From a virus, in IMG/VR virus record IMGVR_UViG_3300045988_058288, positions 1 through 36,678 of that record: a stretch of 36,678 bases of DNA. The stretch is one strand, 5' to 3'. Of the stretch, positions 245-29,197 are shown piece by piece. The notes below the pieces were generated by a model that made no database searches, had not been told where the DNA came from, and was given only the letters and a program-made list of their open reading frames with translations. Position 1 is the stretch's first letter, and the number at the start of each line of letters is the position of its first letter. Both the position numbers and the translations under genes were made by a program.

Positions 245-1006
245 TTATGCTACTTCAATTAATGGGCCACAATTTACCCAAATTCCACCGATTTTTGCAA
301 GATTCTTTTGCACATTGACTTCATCAACACGAATTCTAGTTACATAGACAACGGCATTTGTTGTATGCAATACGTTATCGTTATATCCATCAGAATTACG
401 CACCTTATCAACTAAGCGAATTGGAAACCAACCGCCTAATGGTTCAAGGTATGCGCATAAATCGTTATTGATTCGTTTCAAACCTTGATTACCAATCTTC
501 ATTTGAACTGATGTTACGTAGCTTCCTGCGTGTAAGATTTGGTCGATTGCTTCTACAGGTTGTGGAATGCTTGGTCTAACTGCTCCTGTATTTGCGAAGC
601 ATTTAGGTCTGAATGCAGTATCAAAGGTTGCATAATAAGGCAATTTAATCAAATTGAATCCCCCACCTTTTCCACCTTGGTTTTGGCCCAAAAACCATCC
701 TTGCTTTCCGTCAATATCAGAATCAAAAATAGCAATATGACTGTATGGTGTCCATCCTGCTACTTCTTTAAAGACTGCGATATCTCCGGGTTGCATGATT
801 GAGACCTCATTACAATAGTTTAAGATACCATTTGTTTTTCGATTGTTCCAAATGTCCTTAACAAATTTACTTGTTGTGCAATGAATAGCTTGATAGCCTA
901 AATCAATCATGTACTTTGCGAATCCGTCCCAACACTGCGGTCCATAGTATCCATCAATGTCGAATGCTTTGCCTAATACGGCTTTTTTGAAATTTTGATA
1001 ATTTAT
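245..1006 (-). CDS. Endolysin: N-terminal CHAP peptidase domain plus C-terminal cell-wall-binding-like domain; proposed ATA start
   Basis: The ORF track begins at M (910), but the frame stays open up to 1021. The upstream stretch encodes NYQNFKKAVLGKAFDIDGYYGPQCWDGFAKY, which holds the CHAP catalytic-Cys motif (GPQCW). A His region (YSHIAIF) follows downstream. AGGAGGA (1015-1021), an 8-nt spacer and ATA (1004-1006) give the proposed start. Confidence 0.8.
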   Translation of the reverse strand: MNYQNFKKAVLGKAFDIDGYYGPQCWDGFAKYMIDLGYQAIHCTTSKFVKDIWNNRKTNGILNYCNEVSIMQPGDIAVFKEVAGWTPYSHIAIFDSDIDGKQGWFLGQNQGGKGGGFNLIKLPYYATFDTAFRPKCFANTGAVRPSIPQPVEAIDQILHAGSYVTSVQMKIGNQGLKRINNDLCAYLEPLGGWFPIRLVDKVRNSDGYNDNVLHTTNAVVYVTRIRVDEVNVQKNLAKIGGIWVNCGPLIEVA

Positions 1007-3375: not shown

Positions 3376-3641
3376 TAATTCTCGTCTAGATACGTTTCTT
3401 TTTCACTGTTTTTTCTTGGTGGTAGGATTGCGCTATACTTTTCTACTTCATCATACTTGTTCTTAATCCTTTTAATAATTCTATTAACACTAGAAACACT
3501 CATATTCAATTTATCGGCTTGTTATCTAACTGTCCATCCGTATATTCTTGTTCTTAGAATCATTTCTTCATCTTTAGTTAATAAAGCTAGATTAATAAAC
3601 TCTTCTAAAATAATCTTATTCCAAGGTACTTGATTCGTCAT
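3375..3641 (-). pseudogene. Sigma-70 region-4-like HTH regulator interrupted by an in-frame TAA
   Basis: The frame from ATG 3639-3641 reads MTNQVPWNKIILEEFINLALLTKDEEMILRTRIYGWTVR, then TAA (3522-3524), then QADKLNMSVSSVNRIIKRIKNKYDEVEKY... up to TAA 3375-3377. The stop falls in the middle of the region-4-type helix-turn-helix. Confidence 0.5.
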
Positions 3642-4116
3642 TGTCTTCGTTAACGATTTTATCCGCTACTTCCAAACCTTTAGTTAATACACTAGGCACG
3701 CTATATCCACATTGTACAAGATTCTCAATAATGCTACGCACTTCATTAATACATAAAGAAGCCAATACAAACCAACCTAATAATGTGGTTACATGGAAAT
3801 CAATCCCTAGCATTTTTCCAATCTCAACCAAGAATGCACTGAATGTGAACGCAACTACAATCATAATCCAATAGCCTAGCTTTTTAAGGACTCCAATCCA
3901 TCCTTTATTGCTATTGATTTTGTGATTAATCGCCGACTTCATACATCCTGTTATATAATCTACTACATTCATAAATAAGAAGAATGCAAATAAATACCAA
4001 TGTTCACCTAATACGTATGTTAATACGGCAACGGCTACACCACCAATTGCATTCATCTTGTCTAGAAAATACATACTTCTTGTTATTTGTTTAAATCCTC
4101 CATTTTTCTTTTCTAT
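3616..4116 (-). CDS. Holin (phage_holin_4_1 / TcdE-like family); proposed ATA start
   Basis: Multi-TM protein (AIGGVAVAVLTYVLGEHWYLFAFFLFMNVVDYITG...GYWIMIVVAF...) in the lysis position. The track's GTG (4123-4125) lies inside the Shine-Dalgarno AAGGAG (4125-4130). The ATA at 4114-4116 is 8 nt downstream of that SD. Confidence 0.7.
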   Translation of the reverse strand: MEKKNGGFKQITRSMYFLDKMNAIGGVAVAVLTYVLGEHWYLFAFFLFMNVVDYITGCMKSAINHKINSNKGWIGVLKKLGYWIMIVVAFTFSAFLVEIGKMLGIDFHVTTLLGWFVLASLCINEVRSIIENLVQCGYSVPSVLTKGLEVADKIVNEDNDESSTLE

Positions 4117-5143: not shown

Positions 5144-6013
5144 CTATAAACCTAAATACCTTTCATTGTAATAAACCGTACAAGCTAGGTTCGTATCTCC
5201 ATTGTCTGCCGTATATCCTATGATATTTTCACCTAACTGAATCGTCATATCATTGAATGATGATGTTCTATCAACTTTTCCGATACAATTCACACCATTC
5301 TTTTTAATCGAAATAGGTTCTGAAACTAAATCAATTTCTAACACATCACCATTGTGTAGTGTATCTAATACACGAATATATTTATCTTTATTGAATAGTT
5401 TCGGATTTGTTACCTCTCCAAATGCTTCAATAACGGCTCTACAGTATGTTTCTGTATCACCTTGATTATCAATATAGATTTCTCTAGCGAATGTAAATGT
5501 TCCAAAGTTTACGCCTGTTTCCGGTATTTCAAAATTGAACGCTAAACCTTCACCAATTTCTGCGATATTCCTTGCGAAATCATCAAATGAAAGCAATAAA
5601 GGTTGTGTACATAGAATTGTAAAGTTAAACTCTAAATCTTTGTAAATGTTAACAGTAGGCAAGCTATACGCATATAAACGACCTCTGCAATATTTCTTTT
5701 CTCCCATGTACTCAACTATCACATCAAATACATGAGAATATTGGAAGAAGCGCCGTAGCTTCTCCCTTTCTTCTCTTTTTTCTTCTAGTGAACCTTTAAA
5801 GGTAGCTTTCACGCTTCTTTCTTTCGTTGGAATACGTGAACCGATTAATCTAGCACCATTTCCGAATGCATTGTCTTGAGTTGTGTATGAAGGTGCTACA
5901 TAATCAAATCCATCTAATCCGTCACTAGATGGTATTCTCCATCTTTTGTTGTCGATTTCAAATTCTTTGCCATCATCCCTACGGACAATAACTCTTACTT
6001 TATTGATATCTAT
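5144..6013 (-). CDS. Distal tail protein (phage tail family, Dit-like); proposed ATA start
   Basis: The track starts at GTG 5812, but the frame is open up to 6058. The upstream part encodes DINKVRVIVRRDDGKEFEIDNKRWRIPSSDGLDGFDYVAPSYTTQDNAFGNGARLIGSRIPTKERS. GGAGGTG (6021-6027), a 7-nt spacer and ATA (6011-6013) give the start. The ATA overlaps the TMP stop as ATAG. Confidence 0.7.
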   Translation of the reverse strand: MDINKVRVIVRRDDGKEFEIDNKRWRIPSSDGLDGFDYVAPSYTTQDNAFGNGARLIGSRIPTKERSVKATFKGSLEEKREEREKLRRFFQYSHVFDVIVEYMGEKKYCRGRLYAYSLPTVNIYKDLEFNFTILCTQPLLLSFDDFARNIAEIGEGLAFNFEIPETGVNFGTFTFAREIYIDNQGDTETYCRAVIEAFGEVTNPKLFNKDKYIRVLDTLHNGDVLEIDLVSEPISIKKNGVNCIGKVDRTSSFNDMTIQLGENIIGYTADNGDTNLACTVYYNERYLGL

Positions 6014-8589
6014 TGAACAACACCTCCATATCCATATCTTGCTTGCATTCGCAACATTCTAGCGATTTCATCCGGACTTTGAGCTTTATTGTAGAAGTTG
6101 ATGGTCTGCCCATTGTTATTTGTCGTTACACTTGGCATAATTTGAGCCATATCTTTAGCTACGGCACGAATCCATGCTTTATTTTTTTCTAAAGGTACGA
6201 CTGCTTCTGCCCCATTACCTTCTAATAAACCGATTTGGCCACGCTTCAATACACCACCACGCTCTAGCCTAGGGATTCTTCCAATGTGAACTCCGGGAAT
6301 CTTGTTGATGATACTTATTGCACCGTTAATGCCACCGATAACACCATTTACCATTCCTTTTACACTAGAGACTAATGAACCTACTGCTCCTTCAATTCCA
6401 CCGAATACACCACCTACAAACCCTTTTAAACCGCTCCATGCATTCTGTATTCCTTGTAGAACATTTGAAATTTTATTTCCTACATTGTCCATTACGCCTT
6501 GAACTTTAGACCAAATACCATTGAATACATCAGAAACCGTAGATTTGATATTATTGAAATATTTATTGATATTATCAATAACACCTTTAACTTTGTCTCC
6601 AACTCTGTTCATTGTATCTTGAATCTTACTCCAAATATTGTTTATGATGTCCGAAACTATCTTAAATAAATTGCTTACGAATCCAATAATCGCAGTAACT
6701 ACTTCGCTAACTTTGCTCCAAATATTCTGAGCAACCGTTAATATTACAGACCAAATATTCGCTACAATTGTAGCTACAATTTGAACAATAGGCATGATAA
6801 AGCCTAGTATTGTTGCAATTGCAGTTCCGACATACGTCACAACCATAGTTATAAATGAAATGATTCCACTTACCACACTTCCAACTACTTGAAGAATAGA
6901 TGTTATTACAGGAATCATACCGATAACTGTTTGAATAATCTTCTTAATGATTGCTAGAATCGGTGGTCCTACAACGCTAAGAATCTTTTGAGCTTGGTTA
7001 ACAACATTTTGAATTGCGTTACCAATTTTACCTAAGATTTCTTTTGCGATAGGTTCAAGCGCAACTTTCATTTCATCAATAGCTTTTCTAACTTCATCAA
7101 ACGCAGGAGCTAACACTTCGGAAACTTGATTTGTTAATTCTGTAATTCCACTTGTATCAATCTTACTTAATACGCTTGAAATTACATCACCAACTTTAGC
7201 AAATCCTTGTTGAATGCCTTGAATTGCTACTGTAATTAATCCTACAATGCCTGCAAGAATAGGGGTAATAAGTTCGCCTATTGGAGTAAATGAATCAAGA
7301 AATGCGCGTCCTAAGCCACTTAAAGCGTTCTTTAAGCCACCATTTGCGATATCTTTAACTTTATCCATTGCCCCTTCTACGTCTTTATATTTATTCCCTA
7401 CTGTCGTTAAGGACTGAATGAATCCGGCGTTGAAATCTTCTCCCATTGTGCCGAAAGCCGTTGCAGATTTATTCAACTTTTCTTGTTCATTTGTAGTCTT
7501 TGAAATATCTTCTACAATCGCATTCACAACATCTTTTTGAGTTGCTCTTCCTTCTTGCCATGCCTTAAATACATCTTGTGTTTTGGTATCAAAACTATCT
7601 AAAGCTCCTTCAATAGTTCCATCAACTAACCTTGTGGTAACTTCGTTGATTGCGTCATTAACTTTATCAAGGTTATAAGCTCCACCATCTAATCCATTCT
7701 GCATTAATTGGAAATATTCATCTGCCGAATATCCTGCTTGTGCAAATTTACCGGAGTATTCTGAAATGTTGTCGCCTAACTCATCTGATTTGTTTAAACC
7801 ATTCTGAGCACCTGTAGCCATAAGGTCGAAAGCTTCTTGAGAAGTGATTCCGAATTGCTTCATTAATTGTTGAGCACCTCTAAGAGTTTCATTCTCATCC
7901 ATATCGAATGTATCTCTTAAAGTTAATAAATCCTCGGTCACGTTCTTTAGGTCAACATCACTTATGCCTTGCATTTGTTGCTTGACTCTGCCCATCATAT
8001 CGGCAACATCTGAAACATCTTCACCGAAATTGTTTGACCAAACATCACGAGCAATGTTTTTAAATTTGCTCATTTCATTGCTTGAAGCACCTGTTTGAGC
8101 TTGAAATTTAGCCATAGCGTCATCTAATTCAGTAGCTTGATTTACACCTGTCTTAATTGCTAATTCCATTCCACCGATAGCTCCTGCTACGGCAGTAACA
8201 CCAACAACACCTCCTGCGCCTAATCCTGTTAGGGTTTCAGTGATTGCAGTAGCTTCCGGACTAATATTCTGAATCTTTCCTAATAGTCCATCAAATCCAC
8301 CTTGAATTGATTCTAAGGCACTGTTTCCTACTTGTTTAAATACATCAAATTTAGAACCTGTTTCTTGCGTTTCTGTTTGTGTATTCTTTTGCTCTTCGTT
8401 TAAATCTTTAAGTTTATCTTTAATCTTTGGTGGTGCTTTTGAACCATCAGAACCTAGCTTGTCGATTGCTTTTGAAGTTTCTTTGATAGCATTTGTAGCT
8501 CCACTTGTGACTTCATGAACGGATTTCAGTCCATTCTCTAGACCACTTGTATCAATCTTTGTATCAAACTTTAATGTTCCGTCTGATAT
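6010..8589 (-). CDS. Tail tape measure protein; proposed ATA start
   Basis: The track starts at ATG 8169. A further 140 in-frame codons upstream read ISDGTLKFDTKIDTSGLENGLKSVHEVTSGATNAIKE..., a typical TMP N-terminus. An in-frame TGA sits immediately before ATA 8587-8589. GGAGGTGG (8598-8605) lies 8 nt upstream of that ATA. Confidence 0.8.
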   Translation of the reverse strand: MSDGTLKFDTKIDTSGLENGLKSVHEVTSGATNAIKETSKAIDKLGSDGSKAPPKIKDKLKDLNEEQKNTQTETQETGSKFDVFKQVGNSALESIQGGFDGLLGKIQNISPEATAITETLTGLGAGGVVGVTAVAGAIGGMELAIKTGVNQATELDDAMAKFQAQTGASSNEMSKFKNIARDVWSNNFGEDVSDVADMMGRVKQQMQGISDVDLKNVTEDLLTLRDTFDMDENETLRGAQQLMKQFGITSQEAFDLMATGAQNGLNKSDELGDNISEYSGKFAQAGYSADEYFQLMQNGLDGGAYNLDKVNDAINEVTTRLVDGTIEGALDSFDTKTQDVFKAWQEGRATQKDVVNAIVEDISKTTNEQEKLNKSATAFGTMGEDFNAGFIQSLTTVGNKYKDVEGAMDKVKDIANGGLKNALSGLGRAFLDSFTPIGELITPILAGIVGLITVAIQGIQQGFAKVGDVISSVLSKIDTSGITELTNQVSEVLAPAFDEVRKAIDEMKVALEPIAKEILGKIGNAIQNVVNQAQKILSVVGPPILAIIKKIIQTVIGMIPVITSILQVVGSVVSGIISFITMVVTYVGTAIATILGFIMPIVQIVATIVANIWSVILTVAQNIWSKVSEVVTAIIGFVSNLFKIVSDIINNIWSKIQDTMNRVGDKVKGVIDNINKYFNNIKSTVSDVFNGIWSKVQGVMDNVGNKISNVLQGIQNAWSGLKGFVGGVFGGIEGAVGSLVSSVKGMVNGVIGGINGAISIINKIPGVHIGRIPRLERGGVLKRGQIGLLEGNGAEAVVPLEKNKAWIRAVAKDMAQIMPSVTTNNNGQTINFYNKAQSPDEIARMLRMQARYGYGGVVQ

Positions 8590-10057: not shown

Positions 10058-10476
10058 TAATTAAGCTCCTTTCTGTATTTAATTTGAATAGTCAATGCAT
10101 ATACTGCTTGATTATCCTCATTTGTGTATAGATATAAACCACTTGAAACGGAAACATCATCACAATGTCTGTTTCCGTCTAGTTGTGGTAATTCTCCGCT
10201 TAAATTCTTTTCATCAATCCAATTTTCTAATTCTTCTAGAAAAACATTATTGTCTTGTCTTTCTGATTCAATCTGTGTATTCCTACGAGTTAGAAACGTG
10301 TAGTATTCTGTACACATTTGAGAGCCATCAATGTATGTATCTACAATTGCATTAGGTTCTTTGTACAATGCATAAGAGATAGCTTGTTGCGCTAGAACAT
10401 CCGTTTCAATACGTTCATCTATCTGTATATTTCCATAGCAATATAGCCATTGAATCAACGCTTTTGATACTGTCAT
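10057..10476 (-). CDS. Head-tail joining / tail terminator-like protein (assigned by position)
   Basis: 139 aa with GGAGGTAGTGA-ATG and an ATGA overlap onto the upstream stop. Confidence 0.5.
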   Translation of the reverse strand: MTVSKALIQWLYCYGNIQIDERIETDVLAQQAISYALYKEPNAIVDTYIDGSQMCTEYYTFLTRRNTQIESERQDNNVFLEELENWIDEKNLSGELPQLDGNRHCDDVSVSSGLYLYTNEDNQAVYALTIQIKYRKELN

Positions 10477-10835
10477 TCACTACCTCCTATCATCTGTTGT
10501 GCTTTCTTTAAGATTGTTTCTGCTCCACCATTTCGCATAGCTTTTTTAAACCAATGGTCTGTTTTACCTCCAACGAAATGAGCATTCTCTTTGTTGTAAT
10601 ACCAACGCCGAGCATATGGAGCACTTGGTCCACCTTGCTTTACTAATCCACTACCGATTTGTGTTAATCGTGTAGCCGAGTTAATCAATGCTCCTGTGTC
10701 TCTAGGCGTATAGGGTGTCATAAGCCTAATGACTTCGGAATCAATCATTTGTTGAACTCGTCCACGTTCTTCAAGTCCTCTTGATTGTTTAATTTGGGGA
10801 ATTGATTCAACATCAAGTTTGACTTTTATTCCTAT
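10473..10835 (-). CDS. HK97 gp10-family head-tail protein; probable ATA start
   Basis: The track's TTG (10853) lies inside the GGGAGG motif (10847-10852). ATA 10833-10835 overlaps the upstream stop as ATAG and lies 11 nt after the SD. The start assignment is less certain than for the other ATA genes. Confidence 0.55.
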   Translation of the reverse strand: MGIKVKLDVESIPQIKQSRGLEERGRVQQMIDSEVIRLMTPYTPRDTGALINSATRLTQIGSGLVKQGGPSAPYARRWYYNKENAHFVGGKTDHWFKKAMRNGGAETILKKAQQMIGGSE

Positions 10836-11615: not shown

Positions 11616-11756
11616 CTATTTTTTCTTTTTATCTTGAGGTTTAGCTTCCTCTTTTTCTTCTGTGGGTTCTTCTTCGTCATTTGAAAGTTTCACATATGCG
11701 TAAGGTTCAACCTTTTTATCGATAGAAGGATAACCCCATCCGATTTCCACTGCCAT
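11616..11756 (-). CDS. Small hypothetical ORF (46 aa) after the capsid gene
   Basis: Encodes MAVEIGWGYPSIDKKVEPYAYVKLSNDEEEPTEEKEEAKPQDKKKK. TAATG overlap with the MCP stop. It contains a 38-bp copy of sequence from the 10832-11251 gene. Confidence 0.3.
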   Translation of the reverse strand: MAVEIGWGYPSIDKKVEPYAYVKLSNDEEEPTEEKEEAKPQDKKKK

Positions 11757-12625
11757 TACTTCGCACTAGCAGATAAGTAAATACCTGCTACCTTATTTTG
11801 GTATACATCGACGATTCCATATTTACGATATTTTAGTACATCTGAATCTGATTCAATGTTATTGCTTGCCGGAATTACATTTGAAACGGTGTGTTTATCC
11901 CATTTCATAACGGCAGGTTTGTGAACAATCAAGAAGTTGATTACGTGTCCATCCTCCGCTTTTTCGTATCCGCCCTCTAACTCTGTGTCTTTTCCACTCA
12001 ACAATTTGATTTTTGTGTAAAAACGACTAGCGGGTACAGGAACAACCTTTGCAAATCCTTGTAAAGCTTCACGAGATTTGTAAGTGTCCAACGCCTTAAC
12101 GCTATTTAATAATGTTGGTGTTGAATACAAGATACGTTGTTCGCTAGGAACTTCATCCTCATCCATTTTAGTGATAGCCGTTAATAATGCGCTCAAGAAC
12201 TCTTCTGCACCTGTATAATCTTCTGAAACCTTTGTGATTCCTGTTGTTCCGGCAATTTTGGCGAATGTGTAAGCGTCTGCTTCCGGTGCTACCTTTGTTC
12301 GCATTAATTCTGCTCCTGCCATGCCAAATGCAATGTTCATTGATTCTGCGTTATCTTGTGTATCGACTGAGATTTTAGTACCTCGGTCATAGTCGAATGT
12401 AGCAGTTTTCCATTCTAACTTAACTGAGTTACCTGTATAACCACTGTTTCTATCGTAGTTTCCTAAACCTTTAACAGATATTTGTGGATAGATGATTTCT
12501 TTTGCATTTGCTCCTGCTCGTACCATTGTAGCGTCTGCATTTAAATCACCTGTAACTGAAGCTAACTTATATACCTCATCCAAATTTGAGACATACGTTT
12601 TAGCTAATGCAATTTCATTTGGTAT
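11756..12625 (-). CDS. Major capsid protein; proposed ATA start
   Basis: The track starts at TTG 12583. The frame opens at a TAA two codons before ATA 12623-12625. AGGAGGA (12634-12640) lies 8 nt upstream. This adds MPNEIALAKTYVSN ahead of LDEVYKLASVTGDL, a typical MCP N-terminus. Confidence 0.75.
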   Translation of the reverse strand: MPNEIALAKTYVSNLDEVYKLASVTGDLNADATMVRAGANAKEIIYPQISVKGLGNYDRNSGYTGNSVKLEWKTATFDYDRGTKISVDTQDNAESMNIAFGMAGAELMRTKVAPEADAYTFAKIAGTTGITKVSEDYTGAEEFLSALLTAITKMDEDEVPSEQRILYSTPTLLNSVKALDTYKSREALQGFAKVVPVPASRFYTKIKLLSGKDTELEGGYEKAEDGHVINFLIVHKPAVMKWDKHTVSNVIPASNNIESDSDVLKYRKYGIVDVYQNKVAGIYLSASAK

Positions 12626-16282: not shown

Positions 16283-16891
16283 CTAACCCCACATTGTGTT
16301 TAAATCGTTTGTTGTAATCGCCGTTAATTCTGATTTCTTAACATACGCAGATAAATCAATGTCTGTATTACCAATCTTTTCATATGTCTTTGTCTCTGAA
16401 AGCCAAATATACTCATCATAGATATCTTGTGTTCCATGTGAATGTGCTAACAGATAAATTACACCATTTGAACCTGTAGCAGGTAAGCTCGTTACCTTTT
16501 CATATCTAATAGATGTAATATTACCGACTGCCGAATTAATCAACGATTGTACTTGTGATTGCGTTTGATACCCTTTAGCCGTGATAATTGACTCAACGCT
16601 CGTCGCCGACTGATATCCACTGTCATTTGTTAATTGTGATGTCTTTGTAGGCACTGTAACATCCACGGCTTTTGAGTTTGGCGTTAATTTCGTACCATTT
16701 ACCTTTACAGACTCAATCACATTCACTTGAGCACCACTTGCGATACCACTTAATTTTTGCTTTTCTGCGCTAGTATAGTCATTTGTCGATAAGCCTTTAC
16801 CACTTACGACATCAACTTTCCCACCTAACGCCGATTTAATTTTGCTAATCAAGAGCGTCAATCCACTCTTATCTAAATATTCAATAGCTAT
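16283..16891 (-). CDS. Fibre protein; proposed ATA start
   Basis: The track starts at TTG 16861. ATA 16889-16891 lies 7 nt after GGAGG (16899-16903). This adds MAIEYLDKSG ahead of LTLLISKIKSALGGKVD, a fibre-type N-terminus. The protein contains a LSTNDYTSAEKQKL motif. Confidence 0.6.
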   Translation of the reverse strand: MAIEYLDKSGLTLLISKIKSALGGKVDVVSGKGLSTNDYTSAEKQKLSGIASGAQVNVIESVKVNGTKLTPNSKAVDVTVPTKTSQLTNDSGYQSATSVESIITAKGYQTQSQVQSLINSAVGNITSIRYEKVTSLPATGSNGVIYLLAHSHGTQDIYDEYIWLSETKTYEKIGNTDIDLSAYVKKSELTAITTNDLNTMWG

Positions 16892-17232: not shown

Positions 17233-17528
17233 GTAATCACTTCCTTATTCAATACTCTATATACCTTTGTTGTTTTGATAGGAGAAGCAATAGCAACTCC
17301 TCCTTTTGTAATCATTCTTAATTGAATATTACAAGTACCCTCTTTGAAATTGAGCGTTTCTTCTTGGCTTAACAACACTGAAATAGTATTCCCTTCAACG
17401 TCTAAATCACTTGATTCTTTTTTCAAGATATATCCGTTCTGTTCAAATACCACATAGATATTCTGCATTTCATTTAAATCAATATCGTTTATTGTTATTT
17501 GAATTGTTGGCGTAGTTCCTTGTCTCAT
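17229..17528 (-). CDS. Hypothetical structural-module protein
   Basis: The start is probably ATG 17526-17528, which forms an ATGA overlap with the upstream stop, rather than the track's TTG at 17549. Confidence 0.5.
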   Translation of the reverse strand: MRQGTTPTIQITINDIDLNEMQNIYVVFEQNGYILKKESSDLDVEGNTISVLLSQEETLNFKEGTCNIQLRMITKGGVAIASPIKTTKVYRVLNKEVIT

Positions 17529-18334
17529 GATTTCACCTTGTAAGTCCAATCTTTGCCTACTTCACCTTTATCAACTTCATACGCCCAATCTGCTAGAATC
17601 TCATGACCATTCTCATCTACTAGTGTTCCATCTTCTGTTAATAGAATTGTAGTGAAATGGTTCTCCATAATCATCTTTTCAATATTTGAAATTCTGTTCG
17701 ATAGCTTCCCTGCCGTATTTGCGTCTAACGTATCTTTTACAGTTTCAAACCAATCATTGAATTCTGTTCTATTTGCATTCATTTCAGATTCATTCTGAGC
17801 CTTAATTTCTTTGAATAGCTCAGTTACTTGAGTAAATAAATCCAACGATTGTACGCTTTTAATAGCGCTTGTAACTGCTCCACAACGTGTAAAATCTAAT
17901 CTTGTATCAGTAATATCTGAGCCTTTAACTTCGCTTGCATTGCCTGTTACTGTTACCGTAGCTAATACTAAATCGTAAATAGAATCACTTCTTGTGATTC
18001 CATCATTGATATCACTTGCTACTAAGGTAATGTTTCTGTATGCGTCATTATCATTCAGTCTAAGAATAATATTGTAGCTTTTAGTTGCGCTATTCTTTTC
18101 TAGTGTGATGGTTTCGTCATCTTTCTGCCAATAGAACGCTCCGTTAATATTTGCTCTTCCTGCCTTAACTGTAAGTGTTAAGCCTTGAGCTTTCTCAACC
18201 CTTAAATGGTCTGAACTAGAATCATCTACGAACACGCCATTCGTAAAATAGCTTGAGAACAATCTTCTGAAAGCGTCATATAATACTAATCTATCGCCAT
18301 TTCTTGAGACGAATGGAAAATATGTAGTTGCTAT
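17525..18334 (-). CDS. Fibre / structural protein; proposed ATA start
   Basis: The track starts at TTG 18262. The frame opens at a TGA two codons before ATA 18332-18334, and that ATA overlaps the portal stop as ATAG. This adds MATTYFPFVSRNGDRLVLYDAFRR. GAGGGGGA lies 9 nt upstream. Confidence 0.6.
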   Translation of the reverse strand: MATTYFPFVSRNGDRLVLYDAFRRLFSSYFTNGVFVDDSSSDHLRVEKAQGLTLTVKAGRANINGAFYWQKDDETITLEKNSATKSYNIILRLNDNDAYRNITLVASDINDGITRSDSIYDLVLATVTVTGNASEVKGSDITDTRLDFTRCGAVTSAIKSVQSLDLFTQVTELFKEIKAQNESEMNANRTEFNDWFETVKDTLDANTAGKLSNRISNIEKMIMENHFTTILLTEDGTLVDENGHEILADWAYEVDKGEVGKDWTYKVKS

Positions 18335-19734
18335 TCTTCGTCATCCCCCTCTCCATCATCTTGAATTTCTTCATTCAACAATTCCGTTGCTTCTTCTTCT
18401 GTGAATCCGTATTGTTTCATTAAATACATAATCTTTAATCTTGGAATATCAAATGTAAGTGCGTCATTTCTTAACGCTTGTGCCGTGCTTTGCTTATCCT
18501 CAATGTATGTATCGTCATAATCAATAGCAATGTCTAATGAATTGATATTAAGCTTTCTGCCTTGTGTTAATTCATAGAAGTATGCTATTGCTTGAATGAT
18601 ATCTTGAATATATGCAGTAGATTCTTTACGTTGTGAATTTACTTCTTTCATTGCGTCTTGATTTTCGCCGATATATTCTGTAGCCGTTACGATTCTTCCA
18701 CTTTCAAACGTGTATTTCTTCGTGCCAAATCCAAACATCATTGATAATATGCTCAATGCCGTTTCTAGTGATTGTACAACTTCTTGTGTTCTAACTGTTG
18801 GATTGTATTCCTGCCATAAAGCTTTTTCTTCCGGAAGCTTATCTCTACCTAACTGAACGAAAATCTTTTTCATTTGTGGATTCATCTTAATCTTTCCATT
18901 CTCGTCTTTCTGCATTAATGCTTCATTCACAAGAACGATTTTATCTGATTTCAACAAATCACGATTCCACATTGTCATTGTTAAATCGATTGTTTTCAAT
19001 GGAGCAATTGCGCTCCAAATCTTCGGCAAGCCGTAACCTTGCATTTGTAAGTTGTTTACCTTTGCGTTTCTCATAATTGCAAACGGTTTTACAACATCTA
19101 GTTGAACAATCTGAGCACGGTCTTTTATTTCTTCGCCTGTTTCTTTAAAGTAATGTGTTTCTGCAATATATCTTTCGTCTTGCCCTTTTAGGAACATGAC
19201 CATCACATATACTTTTTTTAGTTTCTCATAATTTACTCCAACGAAAGCCACTTCCACAATTTCATCGTTAATAACAGTTAATGGTAGGATATTCATTGAA
19301 TCACAATAGTTGATTCTGATTTCTCCCCCACTAAAACTACCATCTTCATAAATCTCGGCATTCGATACCGTCACATAAGCTCCTACTGTGCCGTTTGCAG
19401 ACATTTGCTCAACTTGCTTCCTATACATAACATCAAATCTATTCTTTGTTAGAATGTCTGAAATAATGTCATTTGTTGTACTGTCCTCAGTTGCGTTTAT
19501 ATCTAGGATTTCAATGAGGTTCGCGTCATCCTCGCATAGACGCTTTGCAAAGTCTGTTTTATCAAGCGTGTATTCCTCATTGTTCAAGGTGTATGCCGTA
19601 TGAAATTCTGTTTCGGTATTCGTATACCACTTATTACACAATTCAATAATTTCAATTGCGTTTGTATCTACATAATACCCTCTTTCGTTTAGGTAATTCT
19701 GAAACCACGGTCTACGTGTGTTAGATGTTTCTAT
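18331..19734 (-). CDS. Portal protein (SPP1 gp6-like); proposed ATA start
   Basis: The track starts at TTG 19641. The frame opens one codon before ATA 19732-19734. AGGAGG (19741-19746, minus-strand reading) lies 6 nt upstream. This adds METSNTRRPWFQNYLNERGYYVDTNAIEIIE. Confidence 0.75.
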   Translation of the reverse strand: METSNTRRPWFQNYLNERGYYVDTNAIEIIELCNKWYTNTETEFHTAYTLNNEEYTLDKTDFAKRLCEDDANLIEILDINATEDSTTNDIISDILTKNRFDVMYRKQVEQMSANGTVGAYVTVSNAEIYEDGSFSGGEIRINYCDSMNILPLTVINDEIVEVAFVGVNYEKLKKVYVMVMFLKGQDERYIAETHYFKETGEEIKDRAQIVQLDVVKPFAIMRNAKVNNLQMQGYGLPKIWSAIAPLKTIDLTMTMWNRDLLKSDKIVLVNEALMQKDENGKIKMNPQMKKIFVQLGRDKLPEEKALWQEYNPTVRTQEVVQSLETALSILSMMFGFGTKKYTFESGRIVTATEYIGENQDAMKEVNSQRKESTAYIQDIIQAIAYFYELTQGRKLNINSLDIAIDYDDTYIEDKQSTAQALRNDALTFDIPRLKIMYLMKQYGFTEEEATELLNEEIQDDGEGDDEE

Positions 19735-19737
19735 TTC

Positions 19738-21072
19738 TTACCTCCTTAAATCTATATATCCACTATGGGTTATAAATGTATAGCAGAACGAATCCCAATC
19801 ATCATTGATATTGTTTACGTTCTCATCTTTTGGAATGTCTTTCTTTTCATCCCATACTAATTCGCTCAATGCGTTTATTAAGTTCTTACAGTGTTCTTCT
19901 ATCTTTAACCTACCTGTTACAAGTAAGCTATCAACCGTTATAGGACGGTCTGTAAGCTCATTCTTCTTAACCGGTGCAATTATACTACCATCTAATCCTT
20001 CGGCGTAAAAATAAGCTCTAAGCGTGTTTATCAACGTATTAGAAGCACTGTCCGGAAATATCCATTCTACATATCCGTAACATTCAATACAACGCTTATA
20101 GAACCTTACAAACGCTTTGCAGAACTTTGTTGCGTCTATTGCATTTGACTTTGCCATATCTCCCTCATCGAGCGCCCACACACAATCCCAATCATTTGTG
20201 AATCCTGTTAAGTGCCATGAGTACTTTGAACCATTGTCTCCAAAGTCAACGCCTATGATTAAATGACTAAACCTTTTTCCTTGTTCTTTCATCTTCTCTT
20301 TTAAATGTTGATACTTGAATAAATAAGGTTTGCAGTTATTAGCAAAATAAGGGAACACAAGTCCTTCGGCTTCTTCCCTTTGCCCTTTTATATCTCTTTT
20401 GTAATAAACGCTATTCTTATCGTATGATTTCAAGACCGTTCTTATCTGCTCATCACTCAAAGAATAATTATCAACTAAGGTGGTATGCCCATAGTTGTAG
20501 CCATATGTAGAATCTTTATTCTGTTGCTCCTCATGATATCTCAAGAAATCTGTGTAATACCAATGATTCTTGCCTTTGGGGTTTAAATCATGAAATATCT
20601 TTCGATTGCTTGAAGCTATCGTTCTATCCATCACTTCTTGTAGAAACTCAATGCAACAAAGATTTGCTTCTGTTACATATGCCATTCCATATGAATAACC
20701 ATGTATCGCATTCTCTGAGCCTTTCTTAGCGCCACCGGCAAAGAATACAACCTTTTCTCCTACCTTTGTATTGATGTAATAACAATCCTTGCCTTCATAC
20801 TTCCCTACCTTGAACCTATTCGCAAAGTAGTTTTGTAAGCCGTATCCGTTACAATCTCCAATATTCACACGTGCAGATGATGTATCTGTTCCTGCTATCA
20901 AATGGAATTTATCCGGATGTGTTTCTAAAGCGATACAGAAAGCGTATGTGTTGAGTACGTTCTTTCCTCCACGTTTACCACCTTCTAAAACATTAAGCCA
21001 TGAATCAAATGTTTTTTTAAGATAAGTTAATTGTTTTTGATTGAATGGTGCAGGCTTATTCAAAGTCTTCAA
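19738..21072 (-). CDS. terL: Terminase large subunit
   Basis: 444 aa with a Walker-A-like GGKRGGKN and C-terminal nuclease-type acidic motifs. TTG start, coupled to terS by a 17-nt overlap. Confidence 0.85.
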   Translation of the reverse strand: MKTLNKPAPFNQKQLTYLKKTFDSWLNVLEGGKRGGKNVLNTYAFCIALETHPDKFHLIAGTDTSSARVNIGDCNGYGLQNYFANRFKVGKYEGKDCYYINTKVGEKVVFFAGGAKKGSENAIHGYSYGMAYVTEANLCCIEFLQEVMDRTIASSNRKIFHDLNPKGKNHWYYTDFLRYHEEQQNKDSTYGYNYGHTTLVDNYSLSDEQIRTVLKSYDKNSVYYKRDIKGQREEAEGLVFPYFANNCKPYLFKYQHLKEKMKEQGKRFSHLIIGVDFGDNGSKYSWHLTGFTNDWDCVWALDEGDMAKSNAIDATKFCKAFVRFYKRCIECYGYVEWIFPDSASNTLINTLRAYFYAEGLDGSIIAPVKKNELTDRPITVDSLLVTGRLKIEEHCKNLINALSELVWDEKKDIPKDENVNNINDDWDSFCYTFITHSGYIDLRR

Positions 21073-21442
21073 TTCTTCTTTCTTTTGCTACATCTGTAAT
21101 CATAGCTTTATTAATTGCATTTACTTCTGAAGCGTCAAAATGTGTTTCTACCTTATCTGCTTGACCTAGGAATTGTTTTCCTAAGAAAATAGCCATTGCA
21201 GGACTCTTTGAAGCAAGTTTAAATTGCGCTCTTCGTAACGAAATTCTTCCTTGTGCGCCGAACCTTTTTAAACATTCGGAGAAATCAGTTCCATATGTAC
21301 GTTTACACCAATTTGATAATGTCTTATCTGTCGTGTTAAAAAAGTAGCATACTTCTGCTTGTGTGCATTGAATAGCTAACAATTTTTCAAATTCTTCTTT
21401 GTCGAAATCCTTGTTAGGCCTTCCAACTTTTCCATTCGCTAT
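21056..21442 (-). CDS. terS: Terminase small subunit (HTH); proposed ATA start
   Basis: The track starts at TTG 21382. The upstream frame reads TAG AAA GGG GAT GTA ATA ATA GCG..., which adds MANGKVGRPNKDFDKEEFEKL. The start is ATA at 21440-21442 or 21443-21445, after the AAAGGGGA motif. Confidence 0.7.
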   Translation of the reverse strand: MANGKVGRPNKDFDKEEFEKLLAIQCTQAEVCYFFNTTDKTLSNWCKRTYGTDFSECLKRFGAQGRISLRRAQFKLASKSPAMAIFLGKQFLGQADKVETHFDASEVNAINKAMITDVAKERRIEDFE

Positions 21443-21499
21443 TATTACATCCCCTTTCTATATTTATCACTCAATATTTTTGGTGTACAATGTTCCAAA

Positions 21500-21778: not shown

Positions 21779-21796
21779 ATTCTCCTCCTTATTATT

Positions 21797-21821
21797 AAAA
21801 GAACCGAGACAAATGCTCGGT
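21797..21821 (-). terminator. Hairpin plus T-tract between the tRNA and the late ORFs (terminator or attenuator)
   Basis: The minus strand reads ACCGAG-CATTTGT-CTCGGT followed by TCTTTT. It ends about 18 nt before the ATG at 21778. Confidence 0.5.
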
Positions 21822-21903: not shown

Positions 21904-21979
21904 TGGTTGCAGGAGAAGGAATTGCACTCTTCGACCTCTAGCTAATAAGACTAGTGAGCTACTACTGCTCTATCCTGCT
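21904..21979 (-). tRNA. tRNA with UAU anticodon and initiator-like identity elements
   Basis: The reverse complement reads AGCAGGA TA GAGC AGTAGTA GCTC A CTAGT CTTATTA GCTAG AGGTC GAAGA GTGCAAT TCCTTC TCCTGCA A CCA, 76 nt in total. It folds as a cloverleaf with these elements: an A1xA72 mismatch, G2:C71, C3:G70 and U8. The D stem is GAGC/GCTC (A11:U24). The 7-nt anticodon loop is C-U-UAU-U-A and the variable loop is AGGTC. Discriminator A73 and the CCA end are encoded. The T arm is imperfect, with a bulged C and a loop that is not TTC-type. Confidence 0.75.
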
Positions 21980-21985
21980 AAAACA

Positions 21986-21994
21986 ATTATCGCA
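21986..21994 (-). promoter_or_regulatory. Putative extended -10 promoter (TGCGATAAT) directly upstream of the tRNA
   Basis: The minus strand reads TTTTTTCATGCGATAAT-TGTTTT-A. The 6-nt gap places the predicted transcription start at tRNA position 1 (21979). Confidence 0.4.
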
Positions 21995-21996
21995 TG

Positions 21997-22018
21997 AAAA
22001 AATGCTCACATTGTGAGC
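21997..22018 (-). terminator. Rho-independent terminator overlapping the stop codon of the 22006-22332 gene
   Basis: The minus strand reads GCTCAC-AAT-GTGAGC followed by ATTTTTT. Confidence 0.55.
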
Positions 22019-22332
22019 ACTTTCTTTAAGTTTTTATTTATTTTTCTTGGGATTTCTTCTCTTGCATAACCTACAATATTAGATGTTTTTTCTGCACTGA
22101 ATCCCTTTATATATCTATACTCAATCATTGTCCTAGTAGTATCGTCAAGTTGGCTTAATTTGTCTTTTACATAGTTCATTCTTCTTGCATAATCTGCATG
22201 AGCCAAGAATAGCTCGGCTTTTAAAGGATAAATAGCTTCATCCCTTTGTAGCTCTGCTATCTTTTGCTCATAATATGTGTATGATTGGCATTCACACAAG
22301 AAGTGTCTCTTAATATCTTCATACGTGCTCAT
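22006..22332 (-). CDS. Putative late-gene transcriptional regulator (sigma region-4-like HTH; ArpU/RinA-type position)
   Basis: 108 aa. The C-terminal RTMIEYRYIKGFSAEKTSNIVGYAREEIPRKINKNLKK resembles region 4. It is the last early gene before the terminase module. Confidence 0.45.
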   Translation of the reverse strand: MSTYEDIKRHFLCECQSYTYYEQKIAELQRDEAIYPLKAELFLAHADYARRMNYVKDKLSQLDDTTRTMIEYRYIKGFSAEKTSNIVGYAREEIPRKINKNLKKVLTM

Positions 22333-22532
22333 GAACTGTATACCTTATACAATCTATCTTTTAATTCGCCAACTTCACTTCTTAATTTCTTGATTTCTTT
22401 AGCTTGAGTATGAATTGTTGTGTTTCTTTCTTTTATAGTCTGCTCCAATTCAATATTCTTCCTTCCTTGTCTATTGTTTTTAGAAATTAACTCTTTAATC
22501 CTTTCTTCATAATTCATTTCTATTAATTTCAC
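22329..22532 (-). CDS. Hypothetical coiled-coil protein
   Basis: ORF track, 67 aa, overlaps its neighbour. Confidence 0.5.
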   Translation of the reverse strand: MKLIEMNYEERIKELISKNNRQGRKNIELEQTIKERNTTIHTQAKEIKKLRSEVGELKDRLYKVYSS

Positions 22533-27162: not shown

Positions 27163-27420
27163 TTATAATTCAACATTTTCAATCAATGCTCTTTTTTCGA
27201 GGATTGATAAATATAATCCCATGTACCTTTTCTGCTCCCTTAGTAATTCAAGTGGGCAATCATGCTTAGTTACTTCTTTCCCAAGCATTTCTTCAACTTC
27301 AATTTTGTTGCAGAAATTCTTCAATTTCTCATATCTGATTTTTACTTGGCGATATTCTGCTACAAATCTTTCTTTGTAATCGCTTGAACACATTAATTCA
27401 ATTGTTTCTTTTAATTCCAT
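27163..27420 (-). CDS. Hypothetical conserved phage protein
   Basis: 85 aa with the motif SSDYKERFVAEYRQ. Confidence 0.5.
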   Translation of the reverse strand: MELKETIELMCSSDYKERFVAEYRQVKIRYEKLKNFCNKIEVEEMLGKEVTKHDCPLELLREQKRYMGLYLSILEKRALIENVEL

Positions 27421-27457: not shown

Positions 27458-27715
27458 TTATTTCACTTCATCAAAGTCCGAATAATATTCAACGCTTACG
27501 ACTTCACCGTGCTTCGTTTGTAATTCTATTATTCTTTTTTCTAGCTCTTTGTTTTGATATTCAAGCGTTCTGATTCTTCTTCTGTATTCTTCGTATTTAA
27601 AAATACATTTACAAGCTTTATCCTGTTCTTCTTGAATCCTTTTTCCTACCATTAGGCTATATAGAAGAAGTGTTGCACCACTTCCACATATAGCTCCACA
27701 AATCCAATTAATCAT
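27458..27715 (-). CDS. Hypothetical membrane-anchored coiled-coil protein
   Basis: N-terminal TM segment followed by a coiled coil. Confidence 0.5.
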   Translation of the reverse strand: MINWICGAICGSGATLLLYSLMVGKRIQEEQDKACKCIFKYEEYRRRIRTLEYQNKELEKRIIELQTKHGEVVSVEYYSDFDEVK

Positions 27716-27724
27716 TTGTTCACC

Positions 27725-28429
27725 TCAAAATAATCTCTTTTCTTCTATTCTTTTTAACCTGTAGCCTATCCTTCTATATTCCTCATATACAGGCTTCCAT
27801 ATCAATTCGCATTGCTTACGTTCGTTTGGAAGATATTTTTCCATGACTTCCAACTCATCCTGTAGATGTATTGCAAATGGGCATCCTTTACAACCTGTCC
27901 TTTTAAAATTGTATGGTGGATAGTAAAGCTTGCATAATTTAATGTTTCTTTCTTTTACGTACCATTCCATCCAATCATCATTCAAAGGATTTAAAGGCTT
28001 GAATTTAACAACTTTATTATTTTTGGTTAAAATACATCCTTCGTGCATTGACCTAATTCCACCCTCGGCTTGTCGAGTACCAATAATTGCAATTCCCCTT
28101 TTATTTTCTTCTTCCCATTTATGTAATGGCTTTTTCTTCAACTCATTACAACAATTTGGACTTAAAGGAATATTGAAATCTTTTGAAAATTGGTATTTCA
28201 GTATGTTTGGACATTTAAATTTTGCGGATGCTTCTACTCCACTTGCCTTTACACCTTCATAATAATTTCTGTTTGATTTTTCAAAATCGCCTTTTAATTG
28301 AAATATCCGCACCTGTTCCGCATGAAATTTTGATTTAAAAGGATAGCCTTTTTCTTTTAACATTTGCGGAATGTTCACTTTTGAATTTACAATGACAAAT
28401 CTAAAATCATTTTCTGTCATTTGATTCAC
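27725..28429 (-). CDS. PAPS-reductase-family-like protein lacking a recognisable PP-loop
   Basis: Contains NCCNELKKKPL and GTRQAEGG motifs and a C-terminal CKGCPF. No SGGKDS-type N-terminal motif is visible. Confidence 0.5.
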   Translation of the reverse strand: MNQMTENDFRFVIVNSKVNIPQMLKEKGYPFKSKFHAEQVRIFQLKGDFEKSNRNYYEGVKASGVEASAKFKCPNILKYQFSKDFNIPLSPNCCNELKKKPLHKWEEENKRGIAIIGTRQAEGGIRSMHEGCILTKNNKVVKFKPLNPLNDDWMEWYVKERNIKLCKLYYPPYNFKRTGCKGCPFAIHLQDELEVMEKYLPNERKQCELIWKPVYEEYRRIGYRLKRIEEKRLF

Positions 28430-28432
28430 TTT

Positions 28433-29197
28433 CTATGCTCCAAATAGTTGTGCTCTAAGCCTGTTAAATTCATCTTGTACTTCTTTATCTGTTTTTGTGT
28501 TTTGCTCTGCATAAAACTTTGAATCAAGTGTGATAGGCTTATCTTTATTTCTTTTCATCCATTCATCATGAACCCATTTCTGAATCACTAGTGAATGATT
28601 CTTGTATTTCTTTCCACTCGTTTCAATGTACTCATCCAAAATCTTTATATGCTCATCTAATGAATCGCCATATAAATCTAATAGGTGTGTGTGTTCTTTA
28701 TCTGTTAATAGAACGTGTTGATATTCACCGTATTTGTGTTTGGGTGTATATATATCTTTTTTATTATTAAATTTATTATTAATAACTTTATTATTATCCT
28801 TAACATTTTCGTTTATAGGGGTATTAACATTTTTGTATACACCCTCTAAATCTTTTTGTATATACCTATTAACATTTTCGTTTATAGGGGTATTAACAAT
28901 ATACAAATGTCTTCCGATAATTTCTTTTGTTCCTTCTTTATATAGTGTTTCTACTGAAATATATCCTTTTCTATTAAGAGTGCTAATCCATCTACTTACT
29001 GTAATTTTAGAAACTTTATATAAATCTGCGAAATATTGATTTGTTGCCCAACAATATCCTTTTTCATTACATAACGAAGTTATTTCTCCGTATAACAGTT
29101 TTGCATTTGGTGGAAGTTCTTCATCGTATCGGACATTTGCAGGTATGATTGCAAAGTACGATTTTTTAGGTTCTGATATTCTAATCACCTCCACCAA
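28433..29197 (-). CDS. Replication initiator / replisome organizer (N-terminal wHTH, DnaD-like C-terminal region)
   Basis: N-terminus: YFAIIPANVRYDEELPPNAKLLYGEITSLC...ISRWISTLNRKGYI. C-terminus: KHKYGEYQHVLLTDKEHTHLLDLYG...GKKYKNHSLVIQKW. Confidence 0.6.
   Translation of the reverse strand: MVEVIRISEPKKSYFAIIPANVRYDEELPPNAKLLYGEITSLCNEKGYCWATNQYFADLYKVSKITVSRWISTLNRKGYISVETLYKEGTKEIIGRHLYIVNTPINENVNRYIQKDLEGVYKNVNTPINENVKDNNKVINNKFNNKKDIYTPKHKYGEYQHVLLTDKEHTHLLDLYGDSLDEHIKILDEYIETSGKKYKNHSLVIQKWVHDEWMKRNKDKPITLDSKFYAEQNTKTDKEVQDEFNRLRAQLFGA
28800..28898. repeat. Two perfect 30-bp direct repeats (candidate origin iterons) inside the initiator gene
   Basis: TTAACATTTTCGTTTATAGGGGTATTAACA occurs at 28800-28829 and 28869-28898. 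Each copy encodes NTPINENV in the protein. An AT-rich tract lies adjacent at 28750-28799. Confidence 0.6.

Follow-up and report, generated by a model that had tools for sequence, protein, structure and literature searches.

To our knowledge, every natural initiator tRNA described reads AUG through the anticodon CAU, and non-AUG start codons are read by the same tRNA through mismatches. The determinants for the formyltransferase Fmt are a mismatch at 1-72, the pairs 2:71 and 3:70, and a purine 11:pyrimidine 24 pair in the D stem (PMC5389676, PMC9976931); among the three G:C pairs of the initiator anticodon stem, Shetty et al. found G30:C40 to be essential and, on its own, able to sustain initiation in E. 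coli, and au/GC/gu stems occur naturally (PMC5389676). Initiators with a mutated anticodon start at the complementary codon, are charged according to the new anticodon, and are partly formylated (bioRxiv 10.64898/2025.12.21.695813 and references in it). Position 37 of the initiator pairs with mRNA position –1, and an A37U change favors complementary contexts (Hollerer and Jeschek 2023, PMC10018350); the effect was shown with A37U and A37G mutants over ~45,000 mRNA variants and had been seen earlier in chloroplasts (PMC10018350). Here, we analyze the complete 36,678-nucleotide stretch of the IMG/VR virus record IMGVR_UViG_3300045988_058288 (referred to below as the window), which carries a tRNA gene with the hallmarks of a bacterial initiator and the anticodon UAU. 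We read it, with a probability of about 0.7, as a phage initiator tRNA with an anticodon altered from CAU to UAU, the dedicated reader of A-AUA starts in phage genes; the wider statement, that it is an AUA-reading initiator for the ATA starts of the phage, with a defense-evasion variant of that role included, is highly probable.

The gene lies on the minus strand of the window.

21904..21979, minus strand: initiator-type tRNA gene with anticodon UAU (loop CUUAUUA, U37), A1xA72 and an encoded CCA (from the sequence, Rfam, and covariation in 33 relatives)

The minus strand of 21979..21904, AGCAGGAUAGAGCAGUAGUAGCUCACUAGUCUUAUUAGCUAGAGGUCGAAGAGUGCAAUUCCUUCUCCUGCAACCA, is a 76-nt tRNA gene that reads, from 5' to 3', as the acceptor strand AGCAGGA, UA, the D stem GAGC and GCUC around the loop AGUAGUA, A, the anticodon stem CUAGU and GCUAG around the loop CUUAUUA, the variable loop AGGUC, the T stem GAAG(A)G and CCUUC around the loop UGCAAUU, the second acceptor strand UCCUGCA, and ACCA. 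The cloverleaf placed here by the first-pass annotation, with its anticodon loop C-U-UAU-U-A, was recovered with the Rfam tRNA model (RF00005), which spans 21979..21907 end to end with 43.2 bits (E 4.2e-6; the gathering score is 29). It is also the minimum-energy fold, with an unremarkable folding energy (z = –0.95); the cloverleaf is instead supported by its covariance-model score and by the covariation seen among relatives. ARAGORN, which had been proposed as a check, reported no tRNA on the window and labeled near-identical copies in relatives tRNA-Ile(tat).

The acceptor end contains A1xA72, which is marked as a non-pair in the Rfam alignment and stays unpaired on re-reading, together with G2:C71, C3:G70, A73, and the encoded CCA, all as first described. 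The D stem GAGC/GCUC gives A11:U24, that is, purine 11 with pyrimidine 24, so that the Watson-Crick 1:72 and pyrimidine 11:purine 24 pairs of an elongator tRNA-Ile(UAU) are replaced by A1xA72 and A11:U24. Against the retrieved sequence of E. coli metZ (metZ, metT, metU, and ileX were taken by coordinates), the D stem proved identical, and so did the variable loop AGGUC and the end GCAACCA, the two parts for which a likeness to E. coli tRNA-fMet had been claimed. The peculiarities listed at the same time were also correct. The anticodon stem has A29:U41, G30:C40, and U31-G39 instead of the three G:C pairs of initiators, and the anticodon is UAU instead of CAU with methionine identity. Position 37 is not A, the site of t6A37; each of the 10 distinct variants of the cluster has U there, as do L128/L130. 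The D loop AGUAGUA lacks G18-G19, the T loop UGCAAUU has G55, and the T stem has a one-base bulge. The bulge itself stands, but its base is not the C first read; it is A or G in the window copy and C or U in relatives. Because the one retained of these three G:C pairs is the middle one, G30:C40, which is sufficient in E. coli, the caveat drawn from the missing pairs is softened. The window element is a genuine tRNA gene whose structure is conserved and which has the hallmarks of a bacterial initiator.

An exact-pattern scan of IMG/VR for the same D arm and CUUAUUA loop returned 34 loci; relaxing the anticodon arm added 49 loci from very different environments, all with the loop CUCAUAA (anticodon CAU), the same odd D loop AGUAGUA, and the T loop UGCRA. 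A further scan, for GAU or AAU anticodons on this scaffold, returned no locus. The family alignment comprised 33 distinct sequences, with partner-slid alignments as controls. Paired cells amounted to 94.7%, compared with 38 to 49% in the controls, 14 of 21 pairs were altered on both sides, and the covariation score was 0.559, compared with 0.07 to 0.14; the D arm was fixed by the search pattern, and its conservation within the family is uninformative. The 1:72 position is unpaired in 24 of the 33 members, U:A in 8, and never G:C, while G2:C71 and C3:G70 are each found in 30/33 and G30:C40 in 32/33. Two versions of the anticodon stem exist in the UAU group, CUAGU/GCUAG and UCGGU/GCCGA, which are three compensatory pairs apart around an unchanged loop, indicating selection on a working anticodon arm; some relatives also retain G29:C41. 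More than 40 independent assemblies keep the tRNA, with variation confined to the bulged base besides these stem changes. The expected resemblance to tRNA-fMet was borne out for the UCGGU variant (L004) and for the tRNA of L130 (77% identity to E. coli tRNA-fMet versus 57 to 64% to elongator Met and Ile2), whereas the window copy discriminates less (66, 65, and 61% identity to tRNA-fMet, elongator tRNA-Met, and tRNA-Ile2). The closest CAU relatives (L036/L083, 83 to 86% identity) belong to phages that are unrelated and have no ATA starts. When the region was compared with 50,697 phage records, megablast gave no match and distant blastn gave tRNA-level matches only (for instance, Mycobacterium phage Phabba tRNA-Met, 78%). 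E. coli genomes gave no blastn match to the tRNA, and a scan of genome contigs gave only two chance matches, within archaeal coding sequence.

The phage tRNA-Met(CAU) genes with this initiator-like scaffold, the D loop AGUAGUA without GG, and the T loop U-G-C-R-A form a widespread family (L035-L083). T-loop position 55 is G in all 31 distinct sequences chosen by the AGUAGUA D arm alone, and the two relatives whose D loop contains GG (L126, L128) have UUC in the T loop, a pattern that looks like covariation of the 18/55 tertiary pair. Many AGUAGUA-type members are located in large phage tRNA arrays, next to a second tRNA-Met, and some of the phages that carry them also encode tRNAs with a CUA anticodon, which ARAGORN calls tRNA-Pyl and which are amber-suppressor-like, and one such phage encodes a tmRNA (these genes are at L044 2502-2574, L050 1399-1473, and L051 10281-10684). 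UAU tRNAs with initiator-like acceptor and D arms that keep A37 (CUUAUAA) are found in unrelated phages (L126/L127, 64% G+C, and L129 7630-7704), and these loci gave no usable start-codon signal.

All genes of the phage except the repressor region are on the minus strand. When this strand was scanned for a strong Shine-Dalgarno sequence followed by at least 60 open codons, the first codon was ATG in 24 cases, ATA in 12, GAA in 12, GTG in 3, and TTG in 0; most other codons high in the list adjoin a real start, and the same scan gave no such signal on the plus strand. A relaxed Shine-Dalgarno criterion added two ATA-start genes, the small terminase and the gene after the portal. Approximately 13 minus-strand genes thus have a Shine-Dalgarno sequence and then ATA, and 11 of the 13 belong to the packaging-to-lysis block. 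Where the Shine-Dalgarno sequence is strong, ATA starts account for 9/17 late but 2/18 early genes (p = 0.012).

21056..21445, minus strand: small terminase; AAAGGGGA, 4 nt, then ATA-ATA; phrog_606; first canonical start a TTG at codon 25, with the GRPNK motif before it
18331..19734, minus strand: portal; uuAAGGAGGuaagaaAUA, that is, AAGGAGG, 6 nt, and ATA, one codon past an in-frame stop; next canonical start 31 codons downstream
17525..18334, minus strand: head-module gene; ATA overlaps the portal stop (ATAG); first canonical TTG is codon 26
16283..16891, minus strand: structural-module gene, no assigned function; AGGAGG, 7 nt, ATA; phrog_24103
11756..12625, minus strand: major capsid protein; AAGGAGG, 9 nt, ATA; next canonical start 14 codons downstream; phrog_422
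10473..10835, minus strand: minor head protein; GGGAGG, 10 nt, ATA; phrog_556 from residue 2; start moderately secure; conserved in L131
9551..10057, minus strand: probable tail tube; AAGGAG, 8 nt, ATA; first ATG 17 codons downstream; phrog_3099 from residue 10
6010..8589, minus strand: tape measure; AAGGAGG; ATA is the first codon after the stop; next ATG 140 codons downstream; profile match from residue 7
5144..6013, minus strand: distal tail protein (Dit); GGAGG, 9 nt, ATA; first canonical start 67 codons downstream
3616..4116, minus strand: holin; in-frame ATA at 4116 (AAGGAG) and ATA at 4086 (GGAGG)
245..1006, minus strand: CHAP endolysin; AAGGAGG, 9 nt, ATA; next canonical start 32 codons downstream (ATG at 910); phrog_291 from residue 2
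28433..29179, minus strand: replication initiation protein, early; GGAGG, 8 nt, ATA; phrog_19658 from residue 6
22329..22523, minus strand: small coiled-coil protein; AGGAGG, 8 nt, ATA; ambiguous, with ATG two codons later

In the portal, capsid, tail, and tape measure genes, only 0 to 1 codons separate the upstream stop from the ATA, and the next canonical start is 14 to 140 codons away. The PHROG and Pfam profiles of the ATA-start proteins mostly begin at residues 2 to 10. Capsid residues 3-288 correspond to phrog_422 positions 3-294 of 297, and capsid homologues of ~70% identity begin with MPNNI.LAK.. or MANTIALAK.., which align column for column with IPNEIALAK of the window and place M on the ATA. 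Residues 4-200 of the 16283..16891 product correspond to positions 4-195 of the 197 in phrog_24103, and the start of this gene across the population is ATA in 22 cases and ATG in 7. The portal aligns with phrog_533 from residue 22 and has the same start context in 35 relatives; the orthologue of 17525..18334 in L131 has an ATA start too, with AGGAGG; and in the endolysin, CHAP matches residues 18-100, and the conserved N-terminal part of this domain, with GPQCWDG, lies upstream of the first ATG. These profile and homologue comparisons confirm that coding begins at ATA, where homologues have ATG, and they are indirect evidence that start codons complementary to the tRNA are in use. The two ATA codons of the holin may constitute a holin/antiholin dual start built on ATA. 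A change of the genetic code was rejected, as the open reading frames are intact under table 11; the genome has a G+C content of 33.5%. The junctions at 18331-18334 and 19735-19740 (minus strand) are tight, and the terminase and portal genes share a frame, separated by TAA-GAA-ATA alone.

The base preceding these starts is the strongest argument for the tRNA as their reader. With starts grouped into N-terminal families across all retrieved loci, base –1 is A in 28/29 ATA-start families but in 43/82 ATG families (Fisher p = 8e-6), and the sole exception among the former is an ATA directly followed by ATG; the base before internal in-frame ATA codons is A in 34%. A tRNA with U37 predicts A at –1, as observed, whereas the host initiator has A37 and would favor U at this position. 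The near-universal A(–1) therefore argues that it is the U37 tRNA, not the host initiator, that reads the ATA starts in the P site, and it indicates that these sites are under selection and not subject to drift alone.

The tRNA and the ATA starts also occur together across lineages. The portal start is ATA in 35 related loci, and the tRNA is present in every locus that reaches the tRNA site. In L130 (metagenome contig OKRT01001577.1), the one locus that a metagenome scan returned, the portal and the capsid are 61% and 54% identical to those of the window, and the two capsids align from their first residues onward. The tRNA of L130 has C1xA72 instead of A1xA72, as in L128, and its D and T loops are normal (AGAGGUA and UUCGAUU), but its anticodon arm, U31-CUUAUUA-G39, is that of the window copy. 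Four genes of L130, among them those for the portal, the capsid, and the regulator, have a Shine-Dalgarno sequence and an A-ATA start. Five loci of relatives with ~70% capsid identity showed no tRNA by Rfam or ARAGORN within 10 kb up- and downstream, and they have 37 ATG starts and 1 ATA; the ATA and ATG counts of tRNA-positive and tRNA-negative lineages differ with a Fisher p of 2e-5. Within the population, the same gene may start with ATA or ATG, showing that the two codons are exchangeable at that start position. L131 has many ATA starts and no tRNA, but the expected tRNA site is just outside the stretch covered, so that it has no bearing on the linkage; the site was placed from five cluster members in which a QueT-like gene lies 1.5 to 1.7 kb downstream of the tRNA.

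This gene is part of an insertion between the tRNA and the terminase genes in L022, L030, L087, L089, L118, L123, and L131 (e.g., L131 56-1238), which contains a 244-aa gene and the QueT-like gene (queuosine-precursor transporter family), the latter starting with ATA; the insertion may be related to 7-deazaguanine modification of tRNA or DNA. L132, a relative that lacks the tRNA, has a group I intron (RF00028, 79.5 bits; 9687-9910) next to an HNH/NUMOD4 homing-endonuclease-like gene in its tail region.

The prophage flanks encode ecfA, ecfT, truA, rplM, and rpsI; S9 and TruA of the flank are exact proteins of Holdemanella (H. biformis, H. porci; family Erysipelotrichaceae), and the tail-region protein 1503-1922 is found in 583 indexed blocks of the assembly collection, on contigs of up to 589 kb. 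Judged from these matches, the window represents a common prophage of the human gut bacterium Holdemanella. The host flank genes examined all start with ATG (13/13).

Within the prophage, the tRNA gene is located between a late-regulator-like gene and the packaging genes and is flanked by two terminator-like hairpins.

22006..22332, minus strand: small sigma-region-4-like regulator with ATG start, just upstream of the tRNA (weak: Pfam Sigma70_r4, E 0.0076; phrog_36)
21997..22020, minus strand: terminator-like hairpin with T run, which ends the upstream regulator gene (from the sequence)
21986..21994, minus strand: extended –10-like element TGCGATAAT (most relatives have TGTAATAAT), with its end 6 nt upstream of tRNA position 1
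21795..21821, minus strand: terminator-like hairpin ACCGAGCAUUUGUCUCGGU with T run, ~85 nt downstream of the tRNA, conserved

The TGnNATAAT element is conserved among 36 distinct flank versions. For want of a good –35 element, it is not listed by the consensus promoter scan. Because the tRNA lies between two terminators with a –10-like element 6 nt upstream, it may be transcribed as a separate unit, from the predicted promoter and with a start at or close to A1. The label ArpU for the upstream regulators was rejected, as the regulators of the window and L130 do not align and the sigma-like matches are weak. The early region encodes a PAPS-reductase-like protein (phrog_424; 27725-28429, minus strand) and a protein annotated in relatives as Sequestin family (27458-27715 or 27163-27420, minus strand). 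Several tRNA-modifying enzymes are members of the superfamily that includes the PAPS-reductase fold.

The claim first drawn from the tRNA alone, that an initiator has been retargeted from AUG to AUA, is supported by the family context, the ATA-start genes, and the co-occurrence of ATA starts and tRNA. In the mechanism that we propose, the tRNA would be transcribed from its own extended –10 promoter and charged, as a default guess, with isoleucine by isoleucyl-tRNA synthetase (IleRS), since recognition depends chiefly on the anticodon and A73 is common to both; charging with methionine is also possible. Formylation would proceed through the 1x72 mismatch, G2:C71, C3:G70, and A11:U24, after which IF2 would bring the tRNA to the 30S P site, where G30:C40 would allow its acceptance. 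Three Watson-Crick pairs with AUA and a fourth between U37 and A(–1) would then form, and the fourth pair would offset the weakness of an all-A:U codon-anticodon helix and give a reason for the otherwise puzzling U37. The host CAU initiator would read ATA starts weakly, and efficient synthesis of virion and lysis proteins would consequently depend on the phage tRNA. Its purpose could be a regulatory gate or a dependency fixed once drift from ATG to ATA had become tolerated. In its fullest form, the proposal describes a natural orthogonal initiation system with a four-base signal, A-AUA, in which a temperate phage has transferred its terminase, portal, capsid, tail, holin, and endolysin genes to a private start codon, virion production and lysis are tRNA dependent, and proteins may begin with (formyl-)isoleucine; we give this form somewhat better than an even chance.

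Several observations weigh against the proposed role. Methionyl-tRNA synthetase needs C34, and the anticodon here is UAU. On the other side, t6A37 is a strong determinant for bacterial-type IleRS (PMC9976931); U37 implies that t6A37 is missing, so that charging with isoleucine may be poor, and the default guess is weakened. With the normal initiator, AUA retains ~7.5 to 15% of AUG activity in vivo in a compilation of cases and was equivalent to AUG in one in vitro system (PMC5499595), and ATA starts would therefore be weak without the tRNA, not silent. Two early genes and the regulator gene of L130 also start with ATA, indicating that a simple late-gene gate is not the whole story. The tRNA-positive lineages are related, and the co-occurrence may rest on one evolutionary origin. 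As for the molecule, the window copy scores lowest of its cluster (43 versus 49 to 55 bits with Rfam), and its T arm has the bulge, G55, and an A52/C62 ambiguity. The 31:39 pair is U-G (pyrimidine:purine), unlike the purine:pyrimidine of natural variants, and only one of the three G:C pairs is kept in the window copy. In L125 (6725-6800), the A at position 1 is lost, which creates U1:A72 with a higher Rfam score of 54.5 bits, and hence the 1:72 mismatch is not strictly fixed in the cluster.

One other reading keeps the molecule but changes its purpose: a general replacement initiator, reading AUG by U-G wobble as well as AUA when a host defense or toxin cleaves or sequesters the anticodon loop of the host tRNA-fMet, with the ATA starts arising by near-neutral G-to-A drift after the tRNA had made them tolerable. 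It has precedents in the anticodon-loop changes of phage tRNAs proposed to evade anticodon nucleases and in the VapC-type toxins that cleave tRNA-fMet (PMC10264068), and the ATA/ATG polymorphism in the population, the occurrence of ATA starts outside the late genes, and the AT-rich genome (33.5% G+C) would all fit with drift. The nuclease or toxin is, however, hypothetical in this host, and both the near-universal A(–1), which points to selection, and the late-gene enrichment of ATA starts given above are at odds with it. We regard this purpose as unlikely, and even so the molecule would still be an AUA-reading initiator.

Equally improbable, in our view, is an elongator tRNA-Ile(UAU) serving internal AUA codons of an AT-rich phage, in which the ATA starts would be unlinked attenuators weakly read by the host tRNA-fMet. 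The UAU anticodon and the ARAGORN label of the relatives agree with such a tRNA, tRNA-Ile(UAU) exists in lactic acid bacteria according to references listed in PMC9976931, the U1:A72 pair of L125 would suit it, and the residual activity of AUA with the normal initiator (PMC5499595) would provide for attenuated starts. Codon usage is divided: AUA makes up 27% of isoleucine codons in the early genes and 11% in the host flank, but only 15% in the late genes, which are the most highly expressed. The structure of the tRNA speaks more clearly, because the unpaired 1:72, A11:U24 instead of pyrimidine 11:purine 24, and U37 instead of A37/t6A37 argue against a substrate of EF-Tu, and the scaffold most resembles those of initiators. 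It would be paradoxical for the capsid, portal, and tail tube genes, with their perfect Shine-Dalgarno sequences, to have weak starts, and an unlinked elongator would explain neither why ATA starts track the tRNA across lineages nor why the A(–1)/U37 complementarity is start specific. Some benefit in elongation alongside initiation is possible. Finally, a non-translating tRNA-like element (decayed pseudogene, attachment-site remnant, decoy for a tRNA-binding defense protein, or processing signal) is very improbable: the silence of ARAGORN on the window copy, the non-canonical D loop, T loop, and T-stem bulge, and a folding z of only –0.95 would be in keeping with it, but it conflicts with more than 40 independent assemblies and their compensatory anticodon-stem changes, with a position far from the integrase end of the prophage, and with odd loops that recur throughout a large family of phage tRNA-Met genes normal in other respects, it leaves the ATA starts unexplained, and the attachment-site remnant in particular was rejected for a gene that is mid-prophage, full length, and covarying.

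If the preferred reading, an initiator dedicated to A-AUA starts, is true, this would be the first natural reassignment of a start codon by a dedicated tRNA; in the literature covered by a full-text search, neither a natural non-CAU initiator tRNA nor a link between a tRNA and the use of ATA starts in phages was found. Such a system would be for initiation what stop-codon recoding in gut phages is for termination and would offer synthetic biology a ready-made orthogonal initiation pair, as well as a natural test of quadruplet pairing between positions 37 and –1 and of the minimum number of G:C pairs in initiators. There is also a consequence for annotation, since gene finders shorten or miss ATA-start genes and the tRNA is labeled tRNA-Ile or missed. 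Public calls give the capsid 275 or 256 aa (not 289), the portal 436 (not 467), TerS 46 aa, and the endolysin without its CHAP N terminus; the capsid cluster P0001 has 1224 member sequences, and these errors translate into hundreds to thousands of mis-annotated database copies.

Compared with known systems, the phage tRNA is closest to the bacterial initiator. It shares with E. coli metZ the 1x72 mismatch, G2:C71, C3:G70, A73, and the templated CCA, as well as GAGC/GCUC with A11:U24, AGGUC, and G30:C40, but it differs in having UAU instead of CAU, U37 instead of A37, A29:U41, U31-G39, the D loop AGUAGUA, the T loop UGCAAUU, and the T-stem bulge, and in being phage encoded. The tRNA-Ile(UAU) of Mycoplasma mobile and lactic acid bacteria likewise uses UAU to read AUA and receives the same label from annotation tools; however, it has a paired 1:72, an elongator D stem, and A37, whereas the phage tRNA has the acceptor and D stem of an initiator and U37. 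Engineered initiators (the Schulman and RajBhandary mutants, the amber initiator, and i-tRNA-AAC; 10.1101/2021.05.25.445580) follow the same principle of a changed anticodon on an initiator scaffold; they are laboratory constructs, whereas the phage tRNA is natural, is coupled to ~13 recoded genes, and has its U37 matched by A(–1). In the known cases of quadruplet pairing (Esposito 2003; PMC10018350), the base 3' of the anticodon similarly complements the base 5' of the start codon, but the effect is a modest modulation of A37 with U(–1), while in the phage the pair is switched to U37/A(–1) and is nearly obligatory. Stop-codon recoding in phages (Borges et al., bioRxiv 10.1101/2021.08.26.457843) also relies on a phage tRNA that alters codon reading, with recoded codons mainly in late, structural, and lysis genes; there, an elongator suppressor acts at stop codons, whereas here a start codon is paired with an initiator tRNA, and internal sense codons need not change.

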